Shown: positions 112-58,486, numbered from the stretch's first letter. The stretch is DNA of 64,000 nucleotides from Lytechinus pictus (GCF_037042905.1 NC_087251.1:25670001-25734000); one strand, 5' to 3'. The notes: a model not told the origin generated them from the sequence alone. A program made the numbers and translations.

Positions 112-302
112 TCATTAAACATCAAATGAGAATTCCAATTCTCACATTGGTATCATTAAGCTAATAGTTTAATTTGTCATATCAGTCACACCATACACAC
201 TTGTTATTTGTTTTCTGTTAATATATTTCGTGTGAATTATATATTCTGATGAAGTTTTGTTTGACTGCATTTATAATTTGTTGATATTTTGTTCTTTTTC
301 AG

Positions 303-36600: not shown

Positions 36601-39600
36601 GTAAGTACATGTATTGCATAGATTATAGAAGCAAGCTGGGGACCAATCAAATTCTCTTAATTATTATTTTATCTACCCTGAATTTGTTTATCTTCTTACT
36701 TCAGTTAGGTAACTTTAATTTGATTTTAATTGTCAGTGAATACTTGGATTGAGAAAAATTAAAGTGTGTATAGATATACATGTATTAAATCATAATAAAG
36801 GGCCGGTTTCATAAATGTGACTGGTAAATCTTCCGTCAATGGAAACTTACTTATGGGATTCACCTTCAGTGAATCCAAAGAACCCCTCAAGTTGCAAAAA
36901 TAGTCATTGTAAAAGAGGATTTCATCGCCCCCTGTCTTTTATACTAAGAAAATGGTTTTTGTTGTCTTTATGTATTCCAATCTAGATTGAGGATGAGATG
37001 ATCCAGTGTGTGGTTTGTGAAGATTGGCTTCATGGGAGGGTAAGTATGCCTGCTGCCCCCATTCATCCTAACTTCCAAAGCAAGGGGGTGGGTCATTGAC
37101 ATTAGTCTTCTGACAAATCAGGGGACAGTTTCAAGACAGCTGTCAGCACTGACAAGTTGTCTTTATGATAGTTACCATAGTAACAGGCCAGTGTTTCTCA
37201 GCCAACCAAAACCAAGGATTTCAATGAAATTGGCAGCATTGACAGTTTAGTCAGTGCTGACAACTTTCATGAAATGGCCCTCAGATCTGACATAATATTG
37301 ATTGTTTTGTTGGGCAAAGAAGCACAAGTGTCTTGTACTGTGAAGACCATTTGAATAATGACAACTCGTCAGTTCTGGCAACTTGTATTGGGTGGTGTTA
37401 ATGTTTATGGTACTCCAACACAATGTTATGATATCTTACTGGAAATCACCAATTGACTCCGAATATCAAAAACTTTGCAGTGATATAAGGATGGGCTTCA
37501 CAAAATTAATCAGACTCCTGGACGTATAATAAAGAGGTAGGATTAAAATCGATCTCAATATGTGACATTAGTCACATATTGCTTAATTTCAAGTGGAGAT
37601 TACTTTGAATAAATTTAAATAGTTTTGAATCAAGAGGTCTTGTCTTGAAACAATTCTACAAACATGGTAGGTAGACCCTTTAAAGAGCCTATGGAAAATA
37701 CAAAATTTAGCATTTGTGTTAAGGAAGTTATTTTATCTGTACGTCATTTAATTTAAAAAAATTGGTTTCCAAAAATATTGAGATCAAGGACTTCTTTGCA
37801 GCGATGATATTCCTTGGTTTAGATGCATGCACATGCTGTTCAGATAATATAAATGCAATCTATACACTATTGTTTTCTTTACCAAACAGCATCTTGGCTG
37901 TGCCAGTGTACCAGACAGTGATGGCTACCAAGAAATGGTGTGTGAGGCATGCATGGACAGATGTAACTTTCTCTGGAACTATAATCTCCACAGTGTAGGT
38001 ATGTACATTTCATCTGCATGTGCTATTTTCCAACAATGTATACCCTACATTACATAAATAGCAAGTGAAAGATTACTTCCCTGATTTAAATCACACTTAA
38101 CATGAATTTAGATGGTTGTAAAGTCCCATGTTATAAAGATTTGCAATTGATTGAAGTCGGTCTTTCATATGGAAAGCCAGTGACACCATAAAAGTGATCT
38201 TTGTCATCTAGAATAGGTATATGTTTGAGTATATAGTGTACGTCTTAATAGTCAAGAGTTTACCCCCCCTCTCCCTCCCTCTCTCTTTCTTTCTCTTTAC
38301 ATATGCTTGTTCCTTTAATTAAGGAATAACTTCCTGTCAGTGGCAATAATGGCATTGCTGGTTTTACATAGTTTTAAATAGATAGATTTCAATAAATAGC
38401 AACACTTTACAAGACACTACCTAGGGTCACAAATGTTCTCAGGGAAAACATACCCTTAGCTTGCACCTTAACAATTCAGAAAATTCTTTTAAGATTTTGT
38501 TTTTCTATGATGTAGTTTTGTTAGCCTGCCCATCTAATCAAGCGAGTCTGCATATTTACACCATGATTTACAACAATTTTATTTTGATATTTTCATTGGA
38601 ACAGAAACAAAAGTTGTCAAAGATGAAACCTCTTCTAACATAGATGTGACCACTATGGAAGAGAAGGAACCTAGTTTGATTGAAGCGACAGGTGGTCCAT
38701 CTGTTAATAACTATTCAGTGGAAACCAAGGAGGTAGCCTCAACATCTTGTGATAATGTGACCATGAACAATGAAGCACAGAGGGAAGGAACCGATCCCCA
38801 GATATCAATAGATGCAGAGACATCGGGTGTAGCTTCTTCTAACAAGGTGTCATCAGTAGTGGAAAGGAAAGGAGATTTGTCAAGCATTCCTGGATCAGAT
38901 GGTGTATCGTCTTCGACAGACTCCATGAAGACTCCTGAACAGGTTTCTGGTGAAGGAGATGCTACAAGGACTGATACCTGCCAGGAAAGCAGTATAGCAA
39001 GCAGTGGTCATGACAGTGACACTGCTAAAGTGGAGCCATCAGCTTCAATACCTACAACTCTGCCATCAGCTGCAAAGGATGAAGTCTCGACATCCGAGAC
39101 TGCTTCATCATCTTCAAATTCTACAACGTTGCTGACTCCTAGTGAAAGAGAAGTTCATACAGAAGAAAATGTAAAGGTTTCCAAACAAGATACTGCAGAG
39201 GAAGACAAGAACTTGAAAACTGATGATTGCAGACTTAAGCAACTTAGCAACAGAACAATTGAAAGAAATAAAGGTGCTGTTTTCTGGCCAATGGGGTGGA
39301 GAACCAAGCTTTGTACCTGTCCAGAATGCAAGGTGAGAGGAAATAATTATTTCCCAGTTGCTTTTATTGGTGCATGACTTGCTCTATTTTGATTATTTTA
39401 TTTCCTGAACATTGTATGTGAAAAAATAAGAAGCTTTCTGTGCTCGTGGACTTGTGAAGGAGGTATATATGGTCAATGGTTTTTTGTGCAGGTGTTCCGT
39501 TTTCTATAAATATAGTGATGATTAATTTGACAGTTTGGGTAGGCATGTGGATAGCGCGGGTGGTCGCTTGCTCGCCCCGTCCGTTGCTGATATCTTGGAG

Positions 39601-41809
39601 CAAACTAGTGTTTCAGTTTCTGTATGATGCTTAAAGGACCATGCACACACATTTGGTCTTGGAGTGAACACATGCAAGACACATTATTTTATGTGTTGGG
39701 TACTACATTGCCATGGTAATGGAATGTAATGACAAAAATCAGGGAAAACTTAGAGAGCAAGTGCCAGACCCTTTCTGCCATTATTAACATCTTCTTCATA
39801 TAATGCTGTTATGATAGCCATCTTCAGTGATATTTCAGGTCAAATGAATTAACATATTATCTTGAATTATTATCTTGATTGCATTGATGTGACATTTATC
39901 TTCTATTGATGTTATGAATGTGACATAATAATCTCATAGCACGCTCCCTTGGAGGATGAACAAATACACATTAACATAGTTGTCAGAGATGCGCTTGCTG
40001 CAGAACACTAATGCGTGCAAGGCAGTGGCTTCAGGCAGTGGTGGCGCGATGATGTAAATGCATAAGGTCTATTGAGAAAAAAGTCATTATTCAGCCTGCT
40101 GGCTGCTATTCCCAGTGTTACAATAAACTATACTGAATATTGAATTAACCATGTTGCAGGCAATGTATGACAGACTGAACGTGAGTTTCTTGCAAGACCC
40201 AACTGATTCTGTAGCAGCGTATGAAGAGAGAGGGAAAGGCAAACGTAAGAGGTCCCAATACGATCAAGGGATGGAAGCACTCTCTAACATGGACCGTGTT
40301 CAGCAAGGCGAGATGATGCATGGTAAGATCCTGCACATAATAGTAATTCTGTGTGGAAGTGTCCTGTTACAGTTCTGACTCATGCCTTGTAATCAGAGGG
40401 TCATGTGTTTGAACTTCCAAGAGGCATTAATGCCCTTTTGGCAAGGCGGCAATTTGCACTTGGCCACTCTTCACCCAGATTTTTGTATAGATACAAGGTA
40501 GGATGCAAATGTCAGAGTAATTTTCTTACCAATTAGACTGTCTTAATTGTCTTCTTGTAGCTGGAATATTCCCCAGGGATTGTCCCTTTCCTGTACATGT
40601 CAAAATCCACTGACCATGGGAATAATGTATATACTTTGCCGTTACAATGTAATAAGTGCTCTATAAAAGCAAAATATTATTATTGAAATTGTTATTATTA
40701 TTGAACTTTGTAAATTTTCTGTTCAATTTTTTGTTTGTGTATACTTGTTATAAAATATAAGTATTAAGGAGTTCTTTTCAAAGGGAATTGAAACTAAGGA
40801 TGGATAGGTTATGTACCATTTGTTCTGTGTTCTAGGTTGAGCTTCATTGAAGGGTATTCCCAAATGATTTTAAGTCCATTAGGTATAATAGCATTTAGAA
40901 TTGTGTATTACAATTAGTCTAGGTATCCGCTTATTTATTGTACCAGATATTATCTAAAGTTCTCAAGATGTTATTTTCAAGATATGGTAAGAGGGTATGT
41001 AGTTTTATGATTTGTATTTTATTTCTTTCGTCTGTGTTCTATGGACTTCAGGCTACCGTGATATGAAGTCGGCTCTTAGTGATTTTCTGCGTAGCTTTGC
41101 TGAACAAGGAAAGGTAAGGAAGTTTAATTTTCTCCATATAATTTGCATGATGTATATAGTCTTCAAATTATTTGAATAGTGGGGTGTTTATTGAACTCTC
41201 CATTTTACTTCTACCTACAAGCTTTAAATATGCCAAATGTATTTTTAGTGGGAGACCTGTTTTAATCCCAGATAGATATCATAATTACACAGCATACATA
41301 AATTTGCATATTAGGTCAAAATTCATTTTAAAGTAAGAACGTATCTTCTGCATTAAGATAGTAAAATTCAAAATGGGTATAATACTAGTGATCGTATGGC
41401 TTTGACTTATTCTGTAGGACATCTGCATGTTTGTGATCCTGTAAGGTCAAAGGTCATGTGGAGTCAAATGTTATTTTCTATGTTCAAATTATAGTATTCA
41501 ATATGATTATCGAACAGTGTGTCCCACAAAAAACGAAACCAAGAGTAACATAAGATTTATCAGATGAAACGTGAGACTCCTAAAGCTTTAAACTGGTAGG
41601 CAATATTTCTATTGTATTTGTGATTATGTTATGATAAATCATTGATAATTCTTGGTTTTGTCTTTTTCTGGGATGCTCTGTATTGATCATACTATGGCTT
41701 TTATTTTCAGGTGGTGACAGCCAGTGATATCCAGGAGTTCTATGAAAGTCTGAACAGGAAACGGCAGAGAGTAGGATCAGCAACGAGCATGCAGTACATG
41801 TGTCGCTGA
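30691..41809 (+). CDS. UBR7: UBR-box/PHD protein UBR7 (putative E3 ubiquitin ligase), 10 coding exons
   Basis: Exons 30691-30813, 35470-35603, 35974-36034, 36505-36600, 36986-37039, 37890-37998, 38605-39332, 40160-40322, 41052-41113 and 41711-41809, all GT-AG with consistent phases. Motifs ELEEEAAAVLGDSDDKCCTY, GYVSRQALYACLTC, CLACSYECHEGH, ELYTKRNFRCDCGN, YNHNF.G.YCTCKRPYPDP, MIQCVVCEDWLH, WRTKLCTCPEC, ending MQYMCR*. Confidence 0.96.
30952..31127. mobile_element. Nested-palindrome MITE in UBR7 intron 1
   Basis: Outer arms TTGAATGAGTGCACAGAAGCGTTATTCCTA / TAGGAATAACGCTTCTGTGCACTCATTCAA. Inner hairpin AGCACATTAG.TGTGCGAGGTTAG / CTAACCTCGCACA.CTAATGTGCT. Confidence 0.75.
31690..31978 (-). mobile_element. 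5'-truncated L2/CR1-group LINE 3' end
   Basis: Minus strand reads LLKTPKTRVAYGARAFSASAPSL*NNLPLNLRIIQSLETFKSKLKSYLF*, then a 3' UTR and (TAT)n tail. Confidence 0.85.
33350..33888 (-). mobile_element. Partial inverted copy of the piggyBac-like MITE at 62118-62898
   Basis: Ends GGG|TTAA. Internal gacatgcacatacaaaatgttgcgtaa is nearly the reverse complement of sequence at ~62288-62315. Confidence 0.7.
34045..34490. mobile_element. Right part of a Tc1/pogo-like element with repeated ttccaactaacccc motifs
   Basis: Ends ...gttccaactaaccccgatctcccctactg|ta. A related left end, taggggaaggcggggtaagttg, starts at ~63843. Confidence 0.5.
35036..35312 (-). mobile_element. tRNA-derived SINE
   Basis: (AAT)n tail with tatagcgc, core ccaggtacccattcacctcacctgggttgagtgcagcac, and B-box-like complement gatttaacccacgacc. 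Confidence 0.75.
37121..37280. mobile_element. Harbinger-like palindromic MITE
   Basis: ggggacagtttca..gtcagcactgac ... gtcagtgctgac..tgaaatggccc. Confidence 0.5.
40355..40690 (+). mobile_element. Degenerate SINE
   Basis: aatcagagggtc.tgtgtttgaac, ccttttggcaaggc, ctcttcacccag, tail aagtgctctataaa..tattattatt. Confidence 0.55.
41515..41680. mobile_element. Internally deleted, older relative of the 8495-9314 MITE
   Basis: CAGTGTGTCCCACAAAAAACGAAACC ... GGTTTTGTCTTTTTCTGGGATGCTCTG|TA. Confidence 0.75.
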
Positions 41810-44329
41810 ATGAATTGATCATGGCTAGAAGACTGACCCATGGGATGAATCGTAGTAAGAGGAAATTCTGAGGTGATATGTCAGGAATCTGGCATGTAGC
41901 AGGTTTTGATATTCCATGTTGAAATTAATACATAGCCAGAATGTGCTTTCATGATAAAGGTTCTACATAGACATTGCTTTATGGTTGGTATCTTTAATAT
42001 TGTACAAGGAATTTCAGCTGTTAACTCAAAAAGCCACATTTTTCATGTTACTCCAAACTTGAAACAGAGGAGGCAGCTGCTCGGCCAGTGCACACAGTTT
42101 TATTAGTAATAACTTGATAATGCCATTTGTCTACACTCTAGATACCCACTTATCCTACGAAAAAAAAAAATGAACTATGCTCCTTTTTAAAAATATTCTG
42201 AAAGGGTATTACAAAATTTTTTTAGTTTAATTTTTCTCAAAAAAATCTCGGTGATAGTTCTGTGCACAGAAAGCTAATTGCAAGAAATTACAGTAATGAT
42301 TTTGATAGAAAGGCTTCAAATTTATTATTAATAGTTACACCATCAGCATCACTGACACAGATTAGCACACATGGTCATGTGTATTACGACACAAGTTGAA
42401 GTATACAGAAAAGAATTGTTAATCTGACAGAATGCCATGCTAATTTTGCTCATTTCACAGTAATTATTACTTCCTTATGGAATCATTTGACATGTTCAGG
42501 TAACTCTGCCTAAGTTTAAGTGTGACTTATAGACCACACGTTATACTTTGAATATTGTACCGTTTTTCATTTTCATGACTCAACTCTTGTACCTACCTGA
42601 CTTTGTGTTACATTTTAGAGAGAAAAATCACTGAACAGGGATTCATAACTCGTCAGTGTCAAAAGTTACACATTAATTAACTTCTTAAAATTTTAAAATG
42701 TACAGCGCCCTCTTGTGTTCAAGCAGTTATGCCTGTATTGCCTCTATGGTTTCCTAGTAGATAAAACTTCATCAGATTTGCTTTAGAGAGTTTTGTTTTC
42801 TTCACAGTTATGGACAGAATGTATAATGTCATAACAATTTAGAAGGTATATAACCTTAGATTAAAGAAAAATTATGGAAGCTATGAATTTCTTGGGTTTT
42901 TTATTAATCCAATAATAACGTGTATGCCTTTCATTCTGATCCGTTCCACATGATTTCTAACTTCAGGATGGACTTTTCTTTGGCTTACTTCCCCCCCCCC
43001 CTCCAAATGAAAATATATATCAGTGAATAAAAAGAAAAAATGCAGAGGAAGACATTGTGATGTTTAGATAAATTTTGTTTTGGGTGTAACAATTTGTGCC
43101 CATTAGGTTGATAACTTATATCAATAGTTCAATGGTTTTTCTGCATAGACCAGTATCCAGGCTTTACAGCAACTTAATATCCCAGAAATTACACCCCAGT
43201 CCCCCCTCCCAGAAAACACACACTGACACACACCCTCATACTCCCACACACACAGTGTTTTCTACCAAAGAGTACAATGACTATCCCCCTTATTTTGCCT
43301 TTTCTTTCATCTCTCATCTGTGCACCTGGTTGAATTTGAGCACTAATAACAAAGCTTGTGGTTGGCTAATGACTTAGAACACTTTGTTTCTCATTGCTTT
43401 ATACACCATTATAGCATTTTTTCCTTTTTTATTAACAATATGGTCCCAGCTATAAAGTAAGTCAAGGTTCTCCTTTCCGGATGAAAACCAGGGAGTGTTA
43501 TTAAGCGAACACCCTGGTGTTGAGTTCTCTATAATAGGATTTTTACAGTGTTATCCCACAATTTGCTCATATAACATAACATTAGTTCAGGTGAGAAGAT
43601 ACCAAATCATTGTTAACCATTCTCAGCAACTCTTTGTCGACTATATTTCTGATGCTTTTATGTTTTCCAGAATTTTTTTTTTTCTGTAATATTAGTTCTA
43701 TATGACTACGCCATGAGATTTTCATTGATTATTACTCTCATTTCAATTGGTTTCCATTTATATTGATATCAATATTCACATCCTGGATTTTTCTTATTCC
43801 CTGTCTTGTACCCAGCACAATATATTCGGATTTGTTTACATTTAAATGTAAATTATTAAGAACAAGCCATTGCCTTACATATTCCAGATCTTCAGGTTGC
43901 ATTTAACTTCAATCTGATAATATATTGATCATGTTTTTATTTTCTACTAAATACAGCTTCAAGAGCATCATAAGTATTTCTCATTAATAGAATACAAATT
44001 ACATAAGAAAACATACTGTTGACACAAAATAATTTTCTTTGTCATATTCTTAACTTCACACCAATACATGGACTCAGGAAGAAACATCAAGTTCTTAATG
44101 GAAATTTATATTTTTCTCATAAGATAATGCAGATTGCATTACTGTACTCTACAAATAAAGAAGCATGAAATGTTTACATCAAAACTAGTTTATCTTACAT
44201 ACTGTTAGAATACTTTCCTTCAACTTCTTCTTTTTTTATTTGCTATGACTCTGAAATGAACCATACATGTGTAGCACTAACAGTTTGAACTATATATCAC
44301 ATTATGAAGCAGCGTGGTATAATGCTGAT

Positions 44330-45480
44330 CCATTCTCATAGACAGCTGTGCCTATGCAAGGATCACAAGCTTGGAACTGAGAGTTAAGGTAGAACTCTAG
44401 AGTTTGCCCTTCCTCGCTTTTTCTGCACTTCACAAAGTGAACTGCCTGTGTTCTCGGAATTGCTACAGTGCAAGAGATCAAATTCTGCAGACTTCATGAA
44501 GAGGACATTCACCTTTAGAATTCTGTTTGCATACACGGCAAACTTTTCGGCTGTTGATGACTTTTCTGGCACAGACATCTCTATAGACAGCAGCCTTCAC
44601 AGTACCTCCAACAGCGTCAATGACACCCTTTCCATGATGGCTTTCAAAGAAGCTCCAGGTTACTTCAAGGGACTCTGCATACCTTGTGAGAAGGGAAAAG
44701 CAAAATCTGGACTTAAATTGGGCAGCCCATCAGTCACTCAAGAAAATGGACATGCTTCAGGTCAAGAAAAATCTGTTTGGCCAATTCAATCAACTTCCGG
44801 TTGCACTGAAAGGCACCAAACTTGTTGTGCTTAGTATTATCTGACACCATGACGCAGGTCTCGGCATAGGTTGGTTCTTGGACTCTGTACCAGTAGCATA
44901 CTGTGTAGATGGAGAAAGCGTCATGTCCGAAGTATGCTGATTGAATTTCATGTTGCTGTCTGTTTTCGTAGTTTTCACTGTAGTCGACTTGGATAAGAAC
45001 TTCATCTGCCTCCAGGTGCTGACGTTTGTAAGACATTTCAGCATGCTGTCTCGGTCAATTATAGTGATGACGCTTGAAATCAAGGAGCTGTTTTGTTAAC
45101 TCTCTACAGGCTAGCTTCTTTACCCTTGCTTTCTACTTGCACCTTCTCTGGATAGTGTATGCCTTCCTGCTTCTTCCACTGGTAGTAGGTCAAATGATCC
45201 ACCTCCTTCAGTGAGTCAAAGCAACTGGATAGGGCTTGGAGACCAGGACAAGCATCACATGTGCCATCAACTCAGTCTGTGTTTTCAGGGTTGCATTGGA
45301 TGAGACTCATCAGCAAAGATTTTGATGAAGTGGGTGAGGCAAAATTCCTTTGCATTTATTGACTGGATGAGGAGATCCATATTTTTGCACTTTGGACACA
45401 GGCATAGAAATAGTTGTTGAATGATTAGCATGACATATGTTCTTAAAAAAATATTTGATGAATGGTCATAGATCTCTGAA
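44330..45480 (-). pseudogene. Decayed Sola(2)-type transposase
   Basis: Across frameshifts and stops: CLCPKCKN, CDACPG, YYQWKK, VDYSENY..Q.EIQSAYF, VSDNTKH, FLSD*WAAQFKSRF, WSFFESHHGKGVIDAVGGTVK. Confidence 0.7.
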
Positions 45481-47025
45481 AGCTTAAGTTGATGTATTAA
45501 ACAAAATTCTTTACTTTTAAAATGAATAGAAATACGTACCAGTCTTATTTCTTTGCCTGGCGTAATCACTTGCCTTTTTTTTCAAGTCGCTCCAGGACTG
45601 CCTCAGGTTGGAGGCAGTACGACCAGGACAGCCAAGAGCCGCTAGCTGCTCTGACAGCTCCTCCCATGCCTTTCTTCTTGTTTCTGCAACCTTTATTTGA
45701 TATGCAAACACACCAAAAAAAAAAAGTTTTTCCTGCAGTAAACTAAATTTACACTCTTAAGTAAAAAAAAAATATGTAGGGTTCCTTAGGGTTGATACTT
45801 TGTTTTTACGCTGCTGTTGTTTTCATACACGGTCTTTGTTCTGCAGTCTCTCTTTATTCATTTCCCTGTATATCTTCTGTCTAGTTGTGTGATCTTTCTT
45901 AGGATGATTTGGCGCCATTGCATTGGATGAGACTCATCAGCAAAGATTTTGATGAAGTGGGGGAGGCAAAATTCCTTTGCATTTATTGACTGGATGAGGA
46001 GATCCATATTTTTGCACTTTGGACACAGGCATAGAAATAGTTGTTGAATGATTAGCATGACATATGTTCTTAAAAAATTATTTGATGAATGGTCATAGAT
46101 CTCTGAAAGCTTAAGTTGATGTATTAAACAAAATTCTTTACTTTTAAAATGAATAGAAATACGTACCAGTCTTATTTCTTTGCCTGGCGTAATCACTTGC
46201 CTTTTTTTTCAAGTCGCTCCAGGACTGCCTCAGGTTGGAGGCAGTACGACCAGGACAGCCAAGAGCCGCTAGCTGCTCTGACAGCTCCTCCCATGCCTTT
46301 CTTCTTGTTTCTGCAACCTTTATTTGATATGCAAACACACCAAAAAAAAAAGTTTTTCCTGCAGTAAACTAAATTTACACTCTTAAGTAAAAAAAAAATA
46401 TGTAGGGTTCCTTAGGGTTGATACTTTGTTTTTACGCTGCTGTTGTTTTCATACACGGTCTTTGTTCTGCAGTCTCTCTTTATTCATTTCCCTGTATATC
46501 TTCTGTCTAGTTGTGTGATCTTTCTTAGGATGATTTGGCGCCATTGCATTGGATGAGACTCATCAGCAAAGATTTTGATGAAGTGGGGAGGCACAATTCC
46601 TTTGCATTTATTGACTGGATGAGGAGATCCATATTTTTGCACTTTGGACACAGGCATAGAAATAGTTGTTGAATGATTAGCATGACATATATTCTAAAAA
46701 AATTATTTGATGAATGGTCATAGATCTCTTAAAGCCTAAGTTGATGTATTAAACAAAATTCTTTACTTTTAAAATGAATAAAAATACGTACCAGTCTTAT
46801 TTCTTTGCCTGGCGTAATCACTTGCCTTTTTTTTCAAGTCACTCCAGGACTGCCTCAGGTTGGAGGCAGTACGACCAGGACAGCCAAGAGCCGCTAGCTG
46901 CTCTGACAGCTCCTCCCATGCCTTTCTTCTTGTTTCTGCAACCTTTATTTGATATGCAAACACACCAAAAAAAAAAAAAGTTTTTCCTGCAGTAAACTAA
47001 ATTTACACTCTTAAGTAAATATGTA
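45291..47025. repeat. Near-identical tandem repeat, ~626-bp unit, ~2.8 copies
   Basis: Units start at 45291, 45918 and 46544. The ORF track shows identical 64-aa peptides at 45517, 46144 and 46769. Confidence 0.97.
45540..45690 (-). pseudogene. Myb/SANT-like (trihelix) exon of Harbinger-type DNA-binding protein, repeated in each tandem unit
   Basis: aag|VAETRRKAWEELSEQLAALGCPGRTASNLRQSWSDLKKKASDYARQRNKTG|gtacgt. The W..(I/L)...L.....RT......W.DLK...R.KTG pattern is typical of Harbinger Myb/MSANTD/NAIF1 proteins. Confidence 0.7.
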
Positions 47026-47491
47026 TTTTACAACAAGTGGAACACGTCAGACTGGCAGTCTCACCTGCATTATGCAATTCAATATACTGTAGCAGCAGTG
47101 CTGACTTCAAGGGGCTGATCCAGCTTTTGCCATTAGGGAATGGGGGGTGGGGTATTTTCCTCGACCAGCCTCACCTGGGTTGAGTGAAGCACAATGTAGG
47201 TAAATTTCTTGCAGAAGGAAAACATGCCATGGCTGGGAATCAAACCCACATCTCTCAGATTGGAAGACAAGTGTTATAACCACTTGACCAAGATGTCACC
47301 TACAAGGTGAGATTTAATAACATTTATTTGCTACTACATTCAAGGATGCCAAATATATTATTTTAGGTCTAATAAAAGAAAATCTGCTAAGGGAAAGCTT
47401 CTTCTCTTTTTCATAAATATTCATAAAACTTTGATAAAATTTGCATCAGGACTACCAAAAAAAAACCGCAATAAAACCTGTCTATAAATAC

Positions 47492-47660
47492 AAACAAGAG
47501 TGCCGCTCAGGCGAGCACATTATGCGCCCGCCTGCAACGTGGAACATGGAGTTATTGGTCAAGCAAGAAACTAGTTATCGCGTTTACAAGGAAAAGTTAA
47601 CGGACGGACACCAAGCATGATACCATAATACGTCCCGTCTAGGACGGGCGTATAATAAAA
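47492..47660 (+). mobile_element. Short Helentron-associated (HINE/DINE-like) element
   Basis: Starts aaacaagag, contains ggacggaca, ends with hairpin atacgtcccgtc-tag-gacgggcgtat followed by an A-run. Confidence 0.55.
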
Positions 47661-48659
47661 ATGGTTGCAAATAGAATTTGTGCAATTTTGAAATTTAGCT
47701 TCCATACTGTATATCTTGCCCTTTCACATGGTGATAACGGCTGACCAAACAACCGTGTATGATTGACCCGCACAAAATCGCACATACACTGGAGTTGCTC
47801 CAGTGTATATCTTGACTTTTTCAGCTGTAAGAAATTGAATGAGAAATAATCTTATTAGATGATCACAAAATTCCACTAAGAGATAAAGCCATACAAATAT
47901 TTGCATTTAGTTTTCTTTCAATTTAAATTATCAAATGTTAAGTATTCTGTTTGGGGTGATTTTAACCATGGCTTTAATAAAGATTATTTTGATGGTCGGA
48001 TCTAATTGTTGGACTTATGACCATGATTCAAACAGATGAAAACAATCTCAATATAAACTAGAACAAATATTTGGATTGCCCATGAAATTACATTTCAGAT
48101 GATATATTACCTTAAAGGGATTTGTTCATTTCATCAAGGTCATGTTTATATGCTCATCAGTTTGTTTACTGTATTGTTATAAATGTTTAATTTAGCTATA
48201 AAATGAGATCAAAATAAAAGGTGCCCTTTGAAAACCAAAGTAATGCATGTTTAATACTAATACAATATTCTCATAGTGTCCATTCGGCCAAAAAATTACA
48301 TCATGTAACTTTGTTCCTCTGCGAGAATTTTTAGTGTTTTTTTTATAAAGGATTTGTAAGGTGTACTTAAATAATTAATCATTTAATAAACCATTTCTTT
48401 TGGAAACTGAGAAACAGATGGATGGAGAAAGAAAATAAGGATGAAATAGAATCAATTGTACATGTTTATGTTTTGAAACATGACATAATCTTTTTGAATT
48501 TACCCCTCCCTGCAACAAAGCATATGAAAGTGTGCCCAGTTTATTTTACCACCCTTTTACATCATTTATGTTAGTATTCTTAATTCAGGTTAATGATGCA
48601 AACTAAGTGGAGAAGGTACAAAATAACTTGGAATTGAAATTCAAAAGAGTGTTTGAACT

Positions 48660-48902
48660 GTTGGTCTCCAGTTTGAGCAGAGGCATGTTCTTTTTCTTTT
48701 TACGCAAGGCTTCGGCTCTAGAATTTCTCTTTCTTCCAGCATCCTTCTTTTTTTTCCTTGTAGGGTTCCTTAGGGTTGATACTTTGTTTTTACGCTGCTG
48801 TTGTTTTCATACACGGTCTTTGTTCTGCAGTCTCTCTCTATTCATTTCCCTGTATTCCTTCTGTCTAGTTTTGTGATCTTTCTTAGGATGATTTGGCGCC
48901 AT
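48660..48902 (-). pseudogene. Lys/Arg-rich N-terminal coding remnant, probably the start of a transposase; source of part of the tandem unit
   Basis: tttcag|gtcaatcATG GCG CCA AAT CAT CCT AAG AAA.. = MAPNHPKKDHKTRQKEYREMNRERLQNKDRV*KQQQRKK. 48759-48902 recurs inside the 626-bp unit. Confidence 0.45.
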
Positions 48903-49449
48903 GATTGACCTGAAATTGAAATTGAATGAGATATTCTGAATATCTAAATGATTTGCATTATACTTTTGTTTTAAACATTTCTGTTGTCTCTATCTTTTTA
49001 TGTCTCCATCCTTATTCTTCTTCTGGTGTCTCATGCTCAGACCGCCTCTTCCCTCTTCTTTTTTATTACTAGACAATTTATAGTGTGTTGCTATGATTAT
49101 TACCATAACCTTAAATACCCTTGTTAAAATCATGCTTTAAAGACCTGGCATCCGTCAACATTAACATGTCAACCTTTTCATTGATAAGTGATGATAAGTG
49201 ACAATTGTACATTCTATACCTAGGGCCTACTTTGTAATGTACATGCAAGCCTACTTGTGCAACTCTGTGTACAGAGTTCAATTAAGACTTTATCAAAGAG
49301 AATTTTTGCAATATATAATCATATCAGTAAAGATACAACTCCTTTAGGGTACTTTCTTACGTACCTCATGAAGTATGACTTTAAAGAAGTGAAATTAGAT
49401 GTTAAATCTTACTTGAAATTCACATTTTTCCAATGATTACAGCTTCCAT

Positions 49450-50990
49450 ACATCATGGACTAAACGTATCTTCTGGGCAGGACAAGTGCTCTTTTGTACT
49501 TGAAGCCTAAAGTTACTGCATACCAGTCATAATCTCATTCTTCATTTGCATAATAATGTGGTACTTTGATGTTAAAATCCAGGGGTTTCCACACACTAAA
49601 TCCTTTTCAAAAACATACTGTAGTAACTTGAGATATTGGTGAATATCCTGAAAGCGATATTAGCTTGAAACTCTGAATTTTGTTTTTTAACTCCAATGCT
49701 CACTTTAACTGATCAGGCTCAGGAGGAGATCGTGATCTACCATGTCAAAAGCTTATCTAAAATCTAGTAATATAGCAATCACAATATTTCCGTCTTCTAT
49801 GTTTTTAAGCCAGTCATTGGTTACATGTTAAAGTGCTGTGGTTGTAGAGTGAAGTGGTCTGAAGCCTGATTGAAGCTTGTTAATTATTTCATTATTATTT
49901 AGATATTCATAAACTTGATTGAATACTATTTTGTCTACAATCTTTGTTGAAATTGGATGGATTGATATTGGCCCATAGTTAGATGTTTCTTTCGTTCCAC
50001 TTGTATGCAATGCCCAACTGGAGCAACTTTCCAGTTTTCTGGAACAATTCCATAAGTTATTGACAAATTTAGCATATGTATGTGTTAGTGGTTCTTTTAT
50101 GTAGGACATTACTAGTTTGATCAATCTAATCGATAGAGGGTCATTTCCCATTGCCTTGTCATTAGCTAAAATTACCTGTCTGTTTTGAAATAGTATTTGA
50201 TGCGACCAGAGTAAATTCAAAGCAACAATTCAAAACAGGTTTGTTTACATAAAAGTATGGATGGGTGTCAAAATCCACTCTAATCTTGTTGGCTAAATCT
50301 GGCCCTATGTTAATAAACTATTTTTAGTTCATGAGCGATTAGTTGAGCATCATTAATTTCTCCTGAGTCTGTCATTAAGGATATAATCGTTTTACAATTC
50401 TTTTTCATTACATTGAATCTCATTTCCATTTTCCTCATTCTCGTCAAGATTTACTGATTCCTTGGAGCTAATATAGTGTATTCGCGGTCTGCAGGCAGTC
50501 CATCCAATCTCGTGGAAACACCCTGCCCTTTGGAGTCCTCTTCCTGCAATGCCAGTCTTGCAGACAGTGAAAAGGCGGTGTGTCATCTTTGATCGTCGCC
50601 CGGATGTGCTGGGCAAGAATTTGTGCAAAGAATTTTTATTGCATGAGTGTTGAGATGTAAGTCATCTACGGCGAGTTGAGTGTTGATATCTATGCAGTCG
50701 TCAATTATGCTCCACGCTCGCCGATTGGCCAGAAGTTTTGGTCAGCATTTACACGATGAGGCTTCCAAGAGATTGTCTCCAAGGCCTGTTTACGATGGAT
50801 CAGTTGATATTGTAACTTTCCTGAGCTCTCCAAAGGATTTTTGCATATTGCTGCAGAGAGATGTCAATTTGGCAACAATTTTGTTAGGCTCGTCATCAAG
50901 GTGGACAATGATCTCTGATCTTAGACATTGTCTTTAACCACTAGATCATTGGCTGTATCAAATGCATCATCTAGTTCCTCCACCACTTTG
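49450..50990 (-). mobile_element. Decayed, internally deleted CR1/L2-group LINE (ORF1 SGNH-esterase remnant plus RT start)
   Basis: RT: SNYGPISIHP..KIVDKIVFNQVYEYL..Q SGFRPLHSTTTAL*HVTNDWL..LLDFR*AFDMVDH (~49735-50220). ORF1-like: EIIVH...KVTIS...WSIID..LAVDDLHLN (~50620-50920). Confidence 0.8.
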
Positions 50991-51009
50991 GATCTTGACT
51001 TGCTTTTAT

Positions 51010-51220
51010 TCTCCTTTCACATAGTCATAGTCGAGCAATCCTATTTCTAATTTCCTGTCAGGCTTTTCTGCATTTCTGCTCCCTTTTTTTTTCTTCCTCA
51101 TATGAATTGAAGAAGTTTGACACCTGCAGAATGCCCTTGTAGAAAGACTATCTCCGAAGGTTGTAAGGTGATTCCTTAAGGTGTCATCGTCGATTTCCAG
51201 CAGAACAATGCAGTCAATCT
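51010..51220 (-). pseudogene. Decayed exon resembling the SAM-like N-terminus of repeat-borne G2E3/HECT-like genes
   Basis: cag|IDCIVLLEIDDDTLRNHLTTFGDSLSTRAFC...KKKGSRNAEKPDRKLEIGL. Family recognised from memory only. Confidence 0.35.
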
Positions 51221-51339
51221 GAGAAGGAAAAAAGACCCATTTATAAGAAAGGATATTAGAAATCATTAGTTAATAAACCTCAAACTATTACTCATAGCAT
51301 TATAATTGGATGGAATCACAAACCCTTCAGTTATGGTTT

Positions 51340-51590
51340 TCATTGAAATAAGATGTCCCTTCCCAGTTTCCGTATATGACAGATGTCCAAGAAGGCACAG
51401 ACTTCATGCGCTGGGTTTAGTGGATAAGGAAATGTTAGGCAAAAGTTAAGCATCTTTGTGGTAGCACCTAGACTATCCAACATTGTTATGTGACATGACG
51501 GGCCATCACATGTGAGCGATGATACCATTATCCAAGCATCTGCGAGTTTACTAAGGCATTGCTGTGTCAGGTTTGCATGGTAATAAGAAT
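51340..51590 (-). pseudogene. P-element/THAP9-type transposase fragment
   Basis: ANLTQQCLSKL....VSSLTCDGPSCH..ML.SLGA...FPYP.....FLDICH.RKL.R, including catalytic-D motifs TCDG and D..H..K..R. Confidence 0.85.
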
Positions 51591-52169
51591 AATAATTTGA
51601 TATTTTTCGTACATCTGCCACATAAATATACTACTGCGTATACAGAACAACAATATTTTAATTGATTGCGATTGAAAGGATTTTATCAATGCGCAAGCGA
51701 ACGACTTTAATCCCATATCCCATATTTTCTTGCAGCGCTATAGCGCATATGCAGCATGACGATCGGGACAGGCTGACTTCCTTTGAAATTAAGATTTTTA
51801 ATCCTACAGCCGAAATATCGTCAAGACTTCCATATGTCCCCTCCACTAGATTTGAAAAAAAAATATGGATGTGGCCAATATTGATGCCAGAAACACAAAT
51901 CCGATAATAAAAAAGTGAGAGAAATTTTATTTCAAAGATTTAGAGCCATATTTGTATATGTACAGACACAAATGTACATGTACATGATATGGCTATCAAA
52001 AAAAACAATTGTGTGTAGTTCTGTGATCATTATTGCCCATATGTATCTTGGTGGAGGGTTAGGCTTAGGGTTAGTGTGTAGATAATTTAATTGAGTTCAC
52101 TAACCATTTACTTGTTTGAGTTATACAATTCTGCTGCGTCACTAAGTAATCTCTCAAATAAATCCTTGT

Positions 52170-52670
52170 CCCTATGATGCTGTCACCACATGTACTCCAC
52201 AAGGTCAGTCCAGATGCCAATTTCCTCTGAGTTATGTTTCACTCAACTGTCTTCACTTGCCACCATAAACCTTCAATAATGGTATGTTCACTTGTTCAGG
52301 ATCAATGAAGAGTAATGAGTGATTAATAGCAAAGTGATTAAATCTTTGTAATCCTAGCTGATCATATGCTTTCAGCAGTCGATGATGATAGTAGAACCAG
52401 CTTTGATATGCTCTAGAATTAGTGGTTCTAGGGTTGCTCTCTCTCTTATTGTCTTTCAACGGAACAAAAAAAATTGTCTTGTCTCGGCAGATGCCTCCAA
52501 ACACCCTCTGCCCTTCAATGGCATGCCCCCAATGATACTTTCGTTTCCCAAACTTTGATTCATCAATCTCTACTGTCAGACCAGGTCCTCCAATAGGATG
52601 GTTGCAGTTCAATTTGTTTGTGATGACCCACTCATAGACTTCCCGACAGTAATTATAGTAATCACTGGCT
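52170..52670 (-). pseudogene. Merlin/IS1595(ISXO2)-type transposase fragment
   Basis: DYYNYCREV...IGGPGLTVEIDESKFGKRKYH.GH..EGQ.VFGGICR...FFVP, then after a frameshift KAY..L...FNH..INHS..FIDP. Confidence 0.9.
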
Positions 52671-52674
52671 GTTT

Positions 52675-53103
52675 CTGTCAAAGTAGTGACTACTCGTCTC
52701 GAAGAAATTGGCTCAGTATTAGCAGAAGAAGTTGAACTAGAAGTAGAGAGCACAGCAGGAGGTGAAGCAGCAGAAGGTGAAGCAGAAATAGACATAGCAG
52801 CAGTTAATAAGCAGAAGTGGAAGTGGAACTGGCAAGAATGGCTGATGATCTCTCACTCTCTGAATTAGTCTCTGCTGAAGAGGAAGAATCTCCAGAAGGA
52901 ATGCTGGTTTTGTGTATTGCTGCAGCGAATGGAACTATATGGATGAAACAATATACAAGAAGACTTTGACGGATGCTTGAATTAGATTGTTTGAACTAGG
53001 TTCCATGCCAGATGGAAATCTGATGTCTCTTAATCGATCTCCTGCACTTCTGTGTGTTACTTTGAAACCTAGCTTCAAATCTTCGTCGTTTCTCTCGATG
53101 AAT
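52675..53103 (-). pseudogene. Decayed exon with a UBX-like motif and Ser/Ala-rich tract
   Basis: ttcag|..FIERNDEDLKLGFKV..DIRFPSG..FQASVKVFLY followed by Ser-rich low complexity. RFPxG recalls UBX domains. Confidence 0.3.
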
Positions 53104-53744
53104 CTGAAAAAAGAGAAGATAAAACAATAATCATTACACTACTATACATATACACTATTAGTAAAAATACGATATCAAACTAAGTTTTGATCAGCAAGGT
53201 CACTTTATCAACTAGACGCCTGCAGTTAGAACACCTTACAGATTTGGTGATGAGACCAAGTGTTTGTGCAAAATTAATTGCAGAATCCTCGTCCTTGACG
53301 CTTTGCGATAATGGAAAGAGTTTATCCCTTTGACTTGACTGTGTCCTTTTTTACATACTTTCATTTTCTGAAGGAGTTGGTGATTAAAATTGACAATTGA
53401 AAGATCATCTTTATCTCACACTCTTTGCAATATGGTAGGATTAAATGAGTCAATATGATAGTGGATTATGTGATAATCAAATTTAGGAAAGTCTGAAGTT
53501 GCACACAGCAAGCTACAACAGATAAATTTTGTTTTCCAAAACCTCTCACGTAACACATAAAATCTCTGTAGTGTTTTTGAAGGTCGCGCAATATCAATCA
53601 TGTCACCACTAAAGTAATTATCTTTCATACCCACTATTAAGTCTCGGTCTTTAGTCATTATACTAAAACATGTACATGGGGGCGATTTTGGTCCCAAAAT
53701 GTGAAAAAAGCCCCCTTGACAAACAGACAAAAAAAAATTTTTTA

Positions 53745-54430
53745 CCATGGCATGGCTCGGGTCGTTTCATCACTTGCATGGTGTCAGGGATCTTCACATG
53801 CAGGAAGTAATGAAAGTAATTTTTGCAAGGTTAGGGCATTATGAGGAACATTCCTTTTGCTTACAAATCAGCTCTATCATCATGACACTTGACTTACCTG
53901 CCATTTCTCAATTTAAAATCATCTGCAGCTTCATCTTCACCACTTTCCTCCACGCCAGTACAAACATGAATACCTTGTCACACGCCATCACTTTTGTGTA
54001 AGTGGTCAAGAAACTTCTTGGCAAATTTGCTACACCCTCTTCCATGCTGACCCATTTAGCTACATACTCTACTCTTTCGATGGCTTTTATCACATGATGA
54101 TATGACTTTGCTCTCAGTGTTCGAAAAATGGATTTGGTGGGCTTAAAACTCTCTGTAGCACTGAAATCAATATCAGGGGATTTGAGCCTTTGCGCAGCTT
54201 GGGGCAGGGATGACCAGAAGTCTGTGGGTATGACGCAAAGTGCGTCATTGGTGATAAGCCAGTCAGTCCGCAAATCACACTGTGAGTGCGGTATTGTGAT
54301 TGGTTATTTATTTCCACTGATGAAACAAGGAAATCTTAGCAGTTTTTGTGTTGAACAGTTTCTTCAGAAAATGTGCAGGTTTTGTTTCTGACGAGTTCCA
54401 CAAATAACTTTAGTTATTCATGGCTAGATA
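53745..54430 (-). pseudogene. Decayed hAT-type transposase C-terminal fragment
   Basis: QRLKSPDIDFSA....K.TKSIFRTLR and later CPNLAKI followed by an eroded C/ERS-like segment, as in hAT dimerisation regions. Confidence 0.45.
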
Positions 54431-56103
54431 CATTGAGTCACGAAAGAAAAAGCACCTCTGCACGCAGTCTATTAGGAGAAATTTGACTTAGAAGAGGTAT
54501 AGCACATATTTTTAATAATCTTGTCTATGTAAATTTATATTTGACTTATTGATATGGAAAGTTGACTTAAGGGGCGTTGCAAGAAACTTGCGATCAATTG
54601 CAAGTCTATTTTCGTTCCCAAAATCAAGCATATGCCTTGCAACACCCCCTAAGGCAGAGTTACCTGTACTTTTTATACTAACATGTAAAAACACTTGGGT
54701 GGGCATGTTGGTTCTGTTTTCATTTCAATTAACGATTGTTGCCACAACTGCAATTTGTTTGAAATAGTTTCTCAATACTTTATTGAATTAGGGATCCCAT
54801 GAGGTAAACATTTATATTACCTATTCTACGATGCCAAGGCAGCATGTGATGTCCAAATATATTAGATGCTAAAGAAGGTCATGCTTTCTTTTTCTTCATT
54901 GTTTTTTCAATTGTGTTCTTTAATCATAAATTTCTGTAATTTTCTGGGGGGTTTTCACGTTGTTTCTGGTTGTTTTTGTATTTTATTTGCTCAATTTTAT
55001 ATCACTGGCCGATTTCCAAGGGTGAAAAGTTATGTCTGAACAAAAGTAGTGGGAGAGTTTGCATTTTGGATGCATTACTACTTCATCGTCTGGAATGAAA
55101 GTGACTGCATATTATACAGAGATGCCAGTATAGTTTACATTATTTGTTAATTGGCGACGATAGCATGTAATAAAGTATCACCAGTCGTTCCTAAAGTCGC
55201 TTGTAACTTTGATATGAACGATCGATAAGAAACACCCACCTGAAACTTTTAGTCAGTGTATGCTAACGTATGTATGGCAAGCCTCTTTGAATGTTTGATC
55301 CCATTTCTTGCTGTTAACATCAAGTAATAGAATTATATGGTGAAATTGCTTGTTATGCATAAGATGGCATGTGATGGCTGAAATGTTCAGGAAGGACAGC
55401 CCCTTGAGCAAAGTTAGAACTCATAAAGGCAAAATTTTGAGCTTGTTTGACTATGTATAATTCGTATTTCATCATTGTTTATCTCGATTACTTGAAAGGT
55501 ATTACAATAAAGATAAAGCAAGTTACTTCTTGTTCTTGTACAATGTGTCTTTCATTCTTATCAGTTACTATTATATGAGATCTCATTTCAAATTTTAATT
55601 TTAATTTAAAATTAAAAGACTACATCGAAATATAACTTAAAAGAGACGAGATATGCTTTCAAAATCTCATGAAAAATATCTTCCACTTTGGTGATTATTC
55701 GGCTTGGAGTAGGCTTGACTGTAATTAAAGGTTCTAGAGTGTTACATGTTTGAATTTATCTGTTTATTAAAAAAATAAAAACAGAGAATCACCTCTATTT
55801 TAAAGCTAGCTTCTTTCAACTCACAAATTTGTGGGCAATTTTCAAACATTGTGATTGCTACCCTCGTCTGCCGTCTTTGAATTCATATATGATCGTTCTT
55901 GATTGATCAAAACCTCTTGTATCAGAATCGTCCCTGAGCCCAGTAACACCAAGGGTAGTGATTAATCACTAAGTGAAATGGCCTATCAAGATCATCGTTG
56001 CATGCATATTCTGCAGAGTAGACTAACTAGGAACCAATCAGAAGTGTTCTTTCAAATTAGCAATTAATCGCTAATCTTTGTGTTATGGGGCCCAGATTGG
56101 TTT

Positions 56104-56690
56104 AAAAGAGAATGAAATCCAAAGAACAAGTTAGCTTTTGTAAAAGCAGAAAAATCAAAGAATAAGATCAACGAAAGTTTGAGTAAAATTGAACAAACAA
56201 TAAGAAAGTTACGAGCATTTGAATGTCGAGACCACTAATCCTATGGAGATCCTCCCTTTGGCAATGCGACCAAGATCTGTGATATCACAGATGTACAACT
56301 CTCCCCTTTGGACACTGAAAATATACCCAAACAAAAATCTTTTTTACTCATTCTTATGATAGGACAAACAATTCATCCATGATACATTGTTGTGAAACGT
56401 ATTACATGTCCTCGATAAAAAGAACATTGCTGATCTTGTTATACACTAGATAAAAGAGACAATTTAAGTGAAATATGTACTCAAGTAATAGGGAAGTTGA
56501 ATTTCTGGGACATCACTGATCTTGGTTGCATTGCCAATGGGAGGATCTACATAGCATTAGTGATCTCAATATTCAAATGCTCATAACTTTTTAAATATTC
56601 ATTCAATCTTCCTAAAACTTTCATCGATCTCTGTTTCTTTGATTTTTCTCTTTTATATGAATTCATCTGGTTTCAAGGCTTTCATTCTCC
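56104..56690. mobile_element. Kolobok-like MITE (degenerate)
   Basis: ttaa-aagagaatgaaa ... tttcattctcct, with internal inverted block ttggcaatgcgaccaagatc / gatcttggttgcattgccaa. Confidence 0.55.
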
Positions 56691-56963
56691 TCGCATTTAC
56701 TACGGAGAAACTCTCTACAACTCATCGATTCCTTTGAAAATGCAATTAAAATCACAATAGGGAGCTGAAAGGCTTTTGTCAAAAGTTGGTGCAGCAGATC
56801 ATCCGAAGATTTGCACCGGACAAACATTTGCAAATATGTCGATGTCCAGAGTCAAGAGATCCACCAACTTTCAACAAAAGCCTCTCAGCTGCTCTCCATT
56901 GTGATTTGACTTGCATTTTCAAAGGAATTGGTGCGTTGTAGAGTGTCTCCATTGTAAATGCGA
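56691..56963. mobile_element. Palindromic MITE with ~100-bp imperfect arms
   Basis: TCGCATTTAC..ATTCCTTTGAAAATGCAA..AAATCACAAT / ATTGTGATTT..TTGCATTTTCAAAGGAAT..GTAAATGCGA. Confidence 0.7.
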
Positions 56964-58486
56964 AAAGTCCGGAATATCAGTTGTTTCATATCTATAAGAA
57001 TAAAAATGCATACAGGCAAGTTGTGTCAATGATGCTTTATTCAGTATCATAAATGCTATACATTTTGCTTTGTTTTCAGATCACAAGCGGTGATACCCCA
57101 TTACAGCCAAGGCTGAAAAGAAAGACAAGTTATTTGAAATTCCTACATTGTTACAAAAGGTTTAATAATCTAGCCTTCTATCTAGACATAGAATTTTGAG
57201 ACCTGAAAATAACCTTCATGGGTTTGATAGATCAGACCTGTGGTAAATATATTAAAATTTTATAATCAATTTTAATTTTTAACACAGGTTCTTAACACCC
57301 AAAAGCTTACTATACATATTATAGTTGAACCCAGGAAAGAAACATCCATTGAATTTAAATCACTCGCTAAACAGACTAATATGGATACATTCAGATGGTA
57401 TGCATAAACATTGTTCTTAAAAAAAATTAAAGTTGCCAATTTGATCAGTGGTATTTCACTATAAAAATGGTGAAAAGGATGAAGAAGCAAATAAAAACAA
57501 ACTCCTCGGTGTACCAGTACTCTGCACAATGGCTCTGATAAACAAAATAACATCCCTTCTTTGCTATTATGTAAAACATGTAGAACAGGTGTCTCATACA
57601 TTTGTACATCCTACATATGTTATGTAATAGGCATTGAGCATGCTCTTTTGTCTTCCATTGTTTTTAAACCTGTCTACCAAGGGACCTTGCCAAAACAAAG
57701 AGAGTCTTCTCTTGTATTTCTACAAGCAGATTTTCATTATAAATCATCACAGTCGACTTAGACAGAACGATGGGGACTGCAAGAAAGCTGCAATGAAAAT
57801 ACACATAGTATCCTCGTATTGGGATTTCTGCTGAGAGACAAGAGACTTCAGACAAGTTGCCTATAGTTGGTGATACACATACATCAAAAGTGGACTGAGG
57901 CTGACGTTGGAGGCGGCTTGACTGATGTGCAACACTCCCCTTTTCCAAAGAGGTAATTTTACATTGCACTTTACACCAATAGAGTTGTACAGTTCCTAAT
58001 AGTAATACTAGCAGGTTACTGGTTCCATTCCTTGATACAAGTGGTTATAAAATAATTCAAGAAAACAGTTCTTATTCAAGGATGATGGATATGATTTTGT
58101 TAACCTGTATTGTTATTATGTATCTGAGAGTTAAGGGCAGAAATATATCTTTTATTTGGCAAAATTGAGGGCAAGCACTAAATATTGAATATGAAAATCA
58201 AACAATGAAATGCAACTACATGTATTAACTACATTTGACATATGTCGAATTGGTTTGTAAAACTTTGTCAGTATTGCCCTATGCTTTCAGAATCAGATTG
58301 TCAAGATCAACCTTTGTTTGAAAAGTATGATCTTGGAGAATAAGATCATGCCTTCATTGTTGATATGTAAAGTAGATTAGGTCAATATGCAAGAGACACC
58401 CGTTAAAAATATTTCACAATGAGAAGTTATGTCTTTTCCTGTAATAGAGCAGTTTATAAAAATATTCAAATTGTATGCATACTAAT

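Follow-up and report, generated by a model that had tools for sequence, protein, structure and literature searches.

The window examined here, that is, the whole analyzed stretch of 64,000 nucleotides (nt) of Lytechinus pictus DNA (GCF_037042905.1 NC_087251.1:25670001-25734000; G000:C7:25,670,001-25,734,000 in the 812-Mb assembly), harbors downstream of the gene UBR7 an ancient pile of nested transposable element (TE) remnants, all classifiable members of which lie on the minus strand, antisense to an extended, apparently unspliced plus-strand RNA that seems to be a continuation of UBR7. Positions are counted from the first letter of the window, which is animal DNA with a G+C content of about 35%. 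The explanation to which we lean, with slightly better than even confidence, is that the pile resides in an extended UBR7 3' untranslated region (UTR) and that the shared orientation of the remnants results from chance together with a filter against sense copies; co-orientation is not read as a dedicated silencing device. The original prediction, which had described eight co-oriented elements and interpreted the locus as a candidate source of PIWI-interacting RNAs (piRNAs) resembling the flamenco cluster of Drosophila, is partly confirmed in its observation and partly supported in its interpretation.

Five transposon protein families, represented by six fragments between 43.4 and 52.9 kb, were verified, each one in minus-strand orientation; of the eight elements first proposed, the hAT, SAM-like, UBX-like and LINE-ORF1 assignments are unsupported. 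A Pfam scan of 388 stop-to-stop open reading frames (ORFs) of at least 50 amino acids (aa), covering all six frames of the entire window, confined transposon-type matches to 45.5-51.6 kb on the minus strand only, and no TE-type match was found on the plus strand among these ORFs or elsewhere in the window on either strand. Since Pfam alone was insufficient, the fragments were used as queries in their own genome, which retrieved better-preserved relatives. When seven intact relatives were aligned by tblastn with the whole window, all 21 high-scoring segment pairs fell on the minus strand, within 43386-52708. Further tblastn searches at E up to 20 for missing residues of the long interspersed nuclear element (LINE) and for additional pieces of the Sola-like element, both described below, yielded nothing new.

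The LINE is represented by two minus-strand fragments of its reverse transcriptase (RT). The C-terminal fragment (43386-43893; tblastn with the intact relatives L023 and L024, E=5e-15 to 7e-21) falls outside the interval delimited by the original prediction, and the N-terminal fragment (49729-50229; tblastn E=9e-34) also matches RVT_1 at E=0.006 over 49831-50229, below the cut-off. As a query, the RT gave 150 scored matches among 4510 candidates in the genome, with open frames of up to 1093 aa. Because a relative carries both Exo_endo_phos and RVT_1, the two pieces are classified by protein similarity as an APE-type LINE; of the earlier label "CR1/L2 ORF1 and RT", the RT therefore stands as that of an APE-type LINE, whereas the ORF1 is unsupported and CR1/L2 is only a putative clade.

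Two DNA-transposon fragments bear out their earlier labels. The P-element/THAP9-type transposase fragment (51343-51630, minus strand) matches TNP-like_RNaseH_N at a Pfam E of 1e-5, corresponds to the end of the RNase H N-terminal domain, and shares 55% identity with an intact ORF of 817 aa in the same genome, which has five domains (Tnp_P_element, TNP-like RNaseH_N, GBD, RNaseH_C and THAP9_C). This intact ORF is located at G000:C12:261277-263727 (L026, L034), and a copy of it at G000:C4:23082190-23084225 is 83-93% identical and broken by stops; the ORF belongs either to a P-type element that was active in recent times or to a THAP9-like gene that has been domesticated. The second fragment, a 199-aa open frame at 52256-52852 on the minus strand (tblastn E=1e-16), has 15 genomic relatives, two of which carry DDE_Tnp_IS1595; one of them, a 379-aa ORF (DDE_Tnp_IS1595, E=2e-24), also matches NF033547. 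The label Merlin/IS1595-type is supported on the strength of these domains in its relatives. A further remnant of this type lies on the minus strand at G000:C7:25778412-25779234, about 44-45 kb past the end of the window and beyond the SETD3-like gene described below, and is 43-62% identical to an intact relative.

The remaining two families are less readily named. A Sola-like ORF is present as its C-terminal two thirds (44296-45410, corresponding to aa 254-628 of a 656-aa relative; tblastn E=1e-106 to L016, with frameshifts) and as an N-terminal piece (48717-48926, aa 13-79; tblastn E=2e-4 and 2e-5), both on the minus strand. Of its 25 matches in the genome, 24 lie elsewhere, many of them within open frames of 830-960 aa and on many contigs, and the 656-aa relative is 65% identical to the query piece, all of which identifies the ORF, as judged from sequence, as a genuine multi-copy element. 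The "Sola-type" element originally proposed is thus real as a multi-copy element, but its name stands without a Pfam or NCBIfam family, and the Atlas returned "hypothetical protein" clusters together with weaker leads to DUF7869 and DDE_Tnp_ISAZ013. The long frames at loci L016-L020 and others have no stops, and several pairs of them score identically; the family is probably a recently active DNA transposon of a superfamily missing from the Pfam and NCBIfam libraries. The fifth family is a Myb/SANT-like fragment in three minus-strand copies (45520-45756, 46147-46368 and 46772-46996), each matching Myb_DNA-bind_5 at a Pfam E of 5e-7 to 7e-7. It belongs to a low-copy element of about 3 kb at 45392-48360, delimited by blastn and placed on the minus strand by the Myb frame. 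The "Harbinger Myb" of the original prediction is borne out as a Myb_DNA-bind_5 fragment on the minus strand, but no DDE_Tnp_4 transposase was found in this element or in its second genomic copy, leaving the name "Harbinger" unverified.

These elements are arranged inside one another. The three Myb copies lie in an array at 45291-47019 in which a 626-bp unit is repeated three times in tandem (spacing 625-628, identity 86-100%); by another comparison, identity amounts to 97.7-98.7% over 477-1104 nt, and pieces of 144 nt equal 48759-48902. The unit contains the junction between the Myb-bearing element and Sola-like sequence, and because all three Myb fragments lie within it, they are counted as one insertion event that was triplicated in tandem. 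Reads joining 47357 back to 46644 (a step of 714 backwards) were observed in two runs, two reads in X9 and three in X10, and could stem from a different number of array copies in the animals concerned or from back-splicing of the RNA. The second copy of the Myb-bearing element, at G000:C24:396150-399355, is collinear with the one described here at 87-92% identity (blastn) and carries the same Myb fragment with no transposase. Given this separate copy and the Sola-like pieces that flank the element in the window (aa 13-79 at 48926>48717 and aa 254-628 at 45410>44296), the Myb-bearing element is nested inside the Sola-like element. The Sola-like element is in turn flanked, in collinear order, by the N-terminal (50169>49729) and C-terminal (43893>43386) parts of the LINE RT. 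Both LINE pieces probably represent one element split by the Sola-like transposon, a conclusion limited to that strength because the approximately 97 aa expected between them were not found by tblastn at E up to 20. Nested transposon islands, or TE graveyards, grow by successive insertions and local tandem duplication and decay through frameshifts and deletions, and the same nesting, tandem duplication and frameshift or deletion decay are seen at this locus; unlike here, uniform orientation or one-strand RNA at exon level would not be expected of an ordinary island.

Several frames of the pile resisted classification. A low-copy repeat of no assigned strand at 53911-54303 has seven decayed relatives, in six of which stops break up the frame. 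The label hAT was rejected for this repeat, which has no Pfam or NCBIfam family and no longer homologue among 114 word-sharing candidates; its one match in 1.84 billion representative sequences, a bacterial Ice_binding/PKD/CHU_C repeat protein, is spurious because the alignment runs through a 25-residue repeat. Because the ORFs at 53419-53766 and 50395-50661 occur only once in the genome and match no Pfam family, the SAM-like, UBX-like and LINE-ORF1 assignments are unsupported.

RNA data covering 38401-58400 comprised three stranded, paired runs of the same species label, depleted of ribosomal RNA (X9-X11), and, from a second study, the contigs of X1, with reads filtered at 95% likeness. Read pairs over the UBR7 exons (depth 5-14) all have their first mate on the minus strand, which shows that this class reports plus-strand RNA. 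In all three stranded runs it is this class alone that spans 41.7-57.0 kb, so that the plus-strand transcript antisense to all fragments that had been predicted is indeed present. Its depth is 5.7-10.8 in the bin of the UBR7 terminal exon, 0.4-4.3 at 42.4-44.4 kb, 2.2-14 at 44.4-46.4 kb (5.9-14 in 44404-45737), 1.4-4.2 at 46.4-47.1 kb, 0.02-5.8 at 47.7-54.4 kb and 1.4-2.9 at 55.1-55.7 kb, and it is essentially 0 after 57077. The RNA at 44.4-46.4 kb is accordingly about as deep as the UBR7 exons. Most bins lack reads of the opposite class altogether, and its depth does not exceed 0.71 anywhere outside three stretches of high-copy repeats (47072-47738, 54409-55075 and 55743-57076) where both classes occur; in the neighboring bin 46405-47071 it reaches 0.29-0.46. 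Because a UBR7 intron bin has a depth of only about 0.45 in the stranded runs, the downstream signal represents neither DNA nor ordinary nascent RNA at intron level. X1 is likewise RNA, with one contig spliced across UBR7 introns and an intron bin depth of 0.61; its contigs across the interval have depths of 5-42, compared with 22.6 for the UBR7 exon contig, as exemplified by a contig of 2775 nt at 48868-51643 with a depth of 23.7.

The terminal exon of UBR7 is placed at 41711-43050 on the plus strand by RNA joints, spliced translation and a hexamer scan. The final introns supported by RNA joints (39330>40158, 40321>41051 and 41111>41709) are all GT..AG on the plus strand, the stop codon in the spliced frame is the TGA at 41807-41809, and the first plus-strand poly(A) hexamers 3' of it are at 42860 and 43026. 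The apparently unspliced RNA is annotated, on the stranded RNA sequencing data, from 41810 to 57030 on the plus strand, with its end near the AATAAA at 56999; coverage stops at a bin boundary just past this hexamer, in a bin confounded by a miniature inverted-repeat transposable element (MITE). No splice joint was observed inside the interval, save a 48-nt skip supported by four reads in one run. Joints from 42512 or 42515 to 54472 were rejected as splices: about 33 foreign letters lie between the two sides, both sides lie within copies of one repeat, and the reads are taken to come from another copy of that repeat. Same-strand coverage is continuous from the UBR7 stop codon to about 57.0 kb, in short reads and broken contigs, in which no single molecule joining the UBR7 coding sequence to the distal part was seen. 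A stable RNA of about 15 kb reading on from UBR7, present in two studies, corrects the gene model.

The strand of this RNA bears directly on the idea that TE-derived genes on the minus strand are domesticated or still expressed, for which the 199-aa Merlin-type frame and two frames of 116 and 131 aa at 53.4-54.3 kb would be the candidates. The 199-aa frame is far longer than chance allows at this composition, and between 43 and 55 kb the plus and minus strands hold stop-codon triplets at the same density (693 vs 690), so that the minus-strand frames are no product of composition. An apparent strand asymmetry among ORFs of at least 90 aa in the same interval (4 plus vs 10 minus) does not reach significance, owes part of its size to the tandem copies, and was not used. 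Such genes are nevertheless highly improbable: the minus-strand read class amounts to 0 to 0.71 over 47.7-54.4 kb in all three runs, the frames cover only 77 to 138 residues of proteins of 379-858 aa, the 116-aa frame is unique and familyless, and the 131-aa frame is familyless with decayed relatives only. With no minus-strand RNA seen, this reading was rejected.

In the reconstruction that we favor, a LINE was probably split by the Sola-like DNA transposon, which is itself split by the Myb-bearing element, their junction having later been triplicated, and the P-element and Merlin pieces come next along the pile. The pile lies within a plus-strand RNA to which every classifiable remnant is antisense; this RNA would be either an extended 3' UTR or stable read-through from UBR7, its continuity with the UBR7 mRNA being our inference. 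The common orientation may reflect chance among five or six events, aided by a known filter removing sense TEs from transcribed units as carriers of their own termination, splice and promoter signals. There are five independent events if the LINE is counted once and six otherwise, all on the minus strand, giving a two-sided same-strand chance of 1/16 to 1/32 in place of the 1/128 originally calculated from eight independent insertions; the locus was chosen post hoc from a very large scan, which makes this statistic weak. An antisense bias of TEs in transcription units is reported in the accessible parts of PMC1794541 and PMC3088655, and the accessible part of PMC3517506 ascribes such a bias to termination by sense TEs. 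This locus shares with the systems treated in those texts remnants that lie in a transcribed stretch antisense to the host transcript. As far as the same texts go, however, the bias is a statistical excess among retroelements of mammalian introns, whereas here six of six remnants at one locus, mostly of DNA transposons, lie antisense in a 3' extension.

A number of observations weigh against this explanation. The published bias is a modest excess that does not by itself predict six of six, and it was reported for retroelements, whereas at this locus DNA transposons or DNA-binding fragments make up four of the five families. As many as 32 AATAAA or ATTAAA hexamers occur on the plus strand between 41.8 and 58.5 kb and are evidently passed by the RNA. 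The dip in depth at 42.4-44.4 kb, followed by a return to exon-like values in two of the three bins at 44.4-46.4 kb, does not fit a simple decaying read-through, and may reflect either a second start or reads lost to the 95% filter. Finally, the remnants of low-copy families are clustered. At least 49 P-like and at least 68 Merlin-like matches exist in the 812 Mb of the genome, so that pairs of the two within 2 kb are expected by chance only about 0.02 times, and yet one remnant of each lies less than 1 kb from the other here. Because of this low expectation, the locus must be regarded as collecting or preserving TE remnants non-randomly, a behavior that could equally be accounted for by a piRNA "trap", and the clustering is more striking than the shared orientation.

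If the rise at 44.4 kb marked a second start, the RNA over 44.4-57.0 kb would be a separate long non-coding RNA (lncRNA) initiating near 44.3-44.4 kb, perhaps from a TE-derived promoter, and the antisense arrangement would be a coincidence or the product of a filter. The low depth follows directly upon the poly(A) hexamers at 42860 and 43026, the recovery extends over 44.4-45.7 kb, and depth at the single site 44415 reaches 13 in X9 and 32 in X11, as such a start would lead one to expect. We nonetheless regard a separate lncRNA as rather doubtful. No site where many molecules begin was reported within 38401-58400, and the X1 contigs keep a depth of 8-17 without a break all the way from the UBR7 exon across 44.4 kb. 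Moreover, depth at neighboring sites changes from run to run (13, 1 and 32 at 44415 and 23, 35 and 6 at 44855 in X9, X10 and X11, respectively) in a manner that points to polymorphism-driven read loss and not to a fixed start. Polymorphism in this species is very high: many sites between 38700 and 47800 differ from the reference in all reads of at least one run, and 929-1240 of the 1162-1411 reads placed per run are only 95-99% alike. The 95% filter therefore probably under-counts the depth of non-coding sequence and causes the jumps between runs.

The principal alternative to chance and filtering is that the plus-strand RNA is a piRNA precursor, in the form of a small unistrand source or a genic source of the 3'-UTR type, in which the antisense remnants would be cut into antisense piRNAs and the locus would act as a trap recording past invasions by low-copy DNA transposons and a LINE. 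One-strand transcription antisense to all six classifiable remnants would be in line with this possibility, as would the clustering of remnants of rare families and the lack of close sister copies in the genome, as if the invasions had stopped early or long ago. In Drosophila, antisense TE insertions in the 3' UTRs of host genes suffice to produce silencing piRNAs, according to the accessible portion of PMC13226689, and 3'-UTR piRNAs reportedly derive from full-length mRNAs in what is accessible of PMC8514520. A piRNA precursor is nonetheless unlikely on present analysis. Apart from the weak, post hoc orientation statistic, RNA of the plus strand is to be expected fairly often beyond the 3' end of a plus-strand gene even where piRNAs play no role, and because it is not rare, the discovery of the transcript roughly doubles the odds of the piRNA interpretation and does no more than that.

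The age of the remnants also bears on this alternative. Between 48.9 and 54.4 kb, DNA identity to the nearest genomic relatives is 66-80%, barring a motif of about 50 nt at 51.8 kb; the nearest DNA relative of the Sola-like piece is 69% identical, and the protein identity of the fragments to genomic relatives is 36-65%. Closer copies exist only for the Myb-bearing element (87-94%) and for non-coding high-copy repeats (among the best 39 of 14115 candidates). At such identities, the remnants are, by sequence comparison, too diverged to guide the silencing of any present genomic copy, which argues against a current silencing role. A narrower version, in which the UBR7 3' extension would be a small, genic, one-strand piRNA precursor and invasion trap that keeps the only surviving antisense remnants of low-copy P-type, Merlin-type, Sola-like and LINE lineages, appears more unlikely still. 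The motif excepted above, at 51811-51872, shows 88-96% identity at 25 listed places of the genome, with surroundings at 66-80%, and could mark where a small MITE ends.

Comparison with known systems places the locus between several categories. The flamenco and flam-like clusters, as far as the accessible text of PMC10643416 describes them, share with it one-strand transcription, antisense TE remnants and older elements interrupted by later ones. In the same text, however, such clusters span 227-1085 kb and are rich in Gypsy elements, whereas here about 11 kb of remnants lie in about 15 kb of RNA, an extent of some 11-15 kb against hundreds of kilobases. No retroviral or Gypsy domain was present in any of the 388 ORFs, which leaves the locus devoid of the long terminal repeat (LTR)/Gypsy content of the flam type and speaks against a piRNA source of that kind; its content consists instead of a LINE, three DNA-transposon types and the Myb fragment. 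Furthermore, a protein-coding gene seems to be what the RNA runs on from, a discrete promoter is only a candidate, and the remnants are not near-copies of active elements. The flamenco analogy is weakened on three counts, namely five or six events rather than eight, a small Gypsy-free locus, and diverged fragments. Closer in form are the genic 3'-UTR piRNA sources treated in PMC13226689 and PMC8514520, with which, to the extent of their accessible text, this locus shares antisense TEs in the apparent 3' extension of an expressed gene. Those cases combine small-RNA proof with young insertions matching an active element, whereas here the RNA is long RNA only and the insertions are ancient, and the extension, at about 15 kb, would be unusually long.

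Each outcome would carry its own meaning. Should the locus give rise to small RNAs, it would be a one-strand piRNA source of compact size, attached to a gene and found beyond insects and vertebrate models, carrying remnants of DNA transposons rather than retroviruses, and it would fit the idea, put forward in the accessible portion of PMC13226689, that any exported host transcript with an antisense TE can seed piRNA immunity. An invasion trap would amount to a fossil record of early-silenced invasions on the transcript of a housekeeping gene, not on a dedicated flamenco-like locus. If no piRNAs are made, the locus would provide a clean case in which the orientation pattern and a matching transcript arise without a silencing function, and a caution for predictors that call piRNA clusters by TE strand bias alone.

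Toward its distal end, the RNA traverses a MITE-like element at 56102-56691, with inverted repeats of 136-167 nt and no assigned strand, which is high-copy, with dozens of scored genome copies at 85-86%, and which shows RNA reads on both strands at high coverage. This element swamped the blastn search of 42.4-57.4 kb, for which the best 39 of 14115 candidates were scored. Another high-copy repeat within the pile is represented at 47169-47261, and a 93-nt piece in a UBR7 intron (35215-35306) resembles it in the same orientation at 84% identity. Scans for tRNAs and Rfam families returned no match in the window, that is, no tRNA-derived head of a short interspersed nuclear element and no known RNA.

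The pile is set among protein-coding genes, identified mainly by the Pfam scan: the 3' exons of FUT8 (277-1035, plus strand), a gene for a LYR protein (17691-18002, plus), a short-chain dehydrogenase gene (23871-26721, minus), and UBR7, whose zf-UBR domain lies at 35386-35604 on the plus strand. On the far side is a SETD3/4/6-like gene on the minus strand, with its last coding exon at 61023-61709 (Rubis-subs-bind, Pfam E=0.03) and a further Rubis-subs-bind match at 63033-63308 (Pfam E=0.003), both below the cut-off. Because the UBR7 frame ends in a plus-strand TGA and the SETD3-like gene lies on the minus strand, the two are convergent, and the 19 kb between their stop codons houses the TE pile. 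The order FUT8, LYR-motif gene, short-chain dehydrogenase, UBR7 and SETD3-like gene recalls genes that share one human chromosome, and may represent an old conserved linkage.

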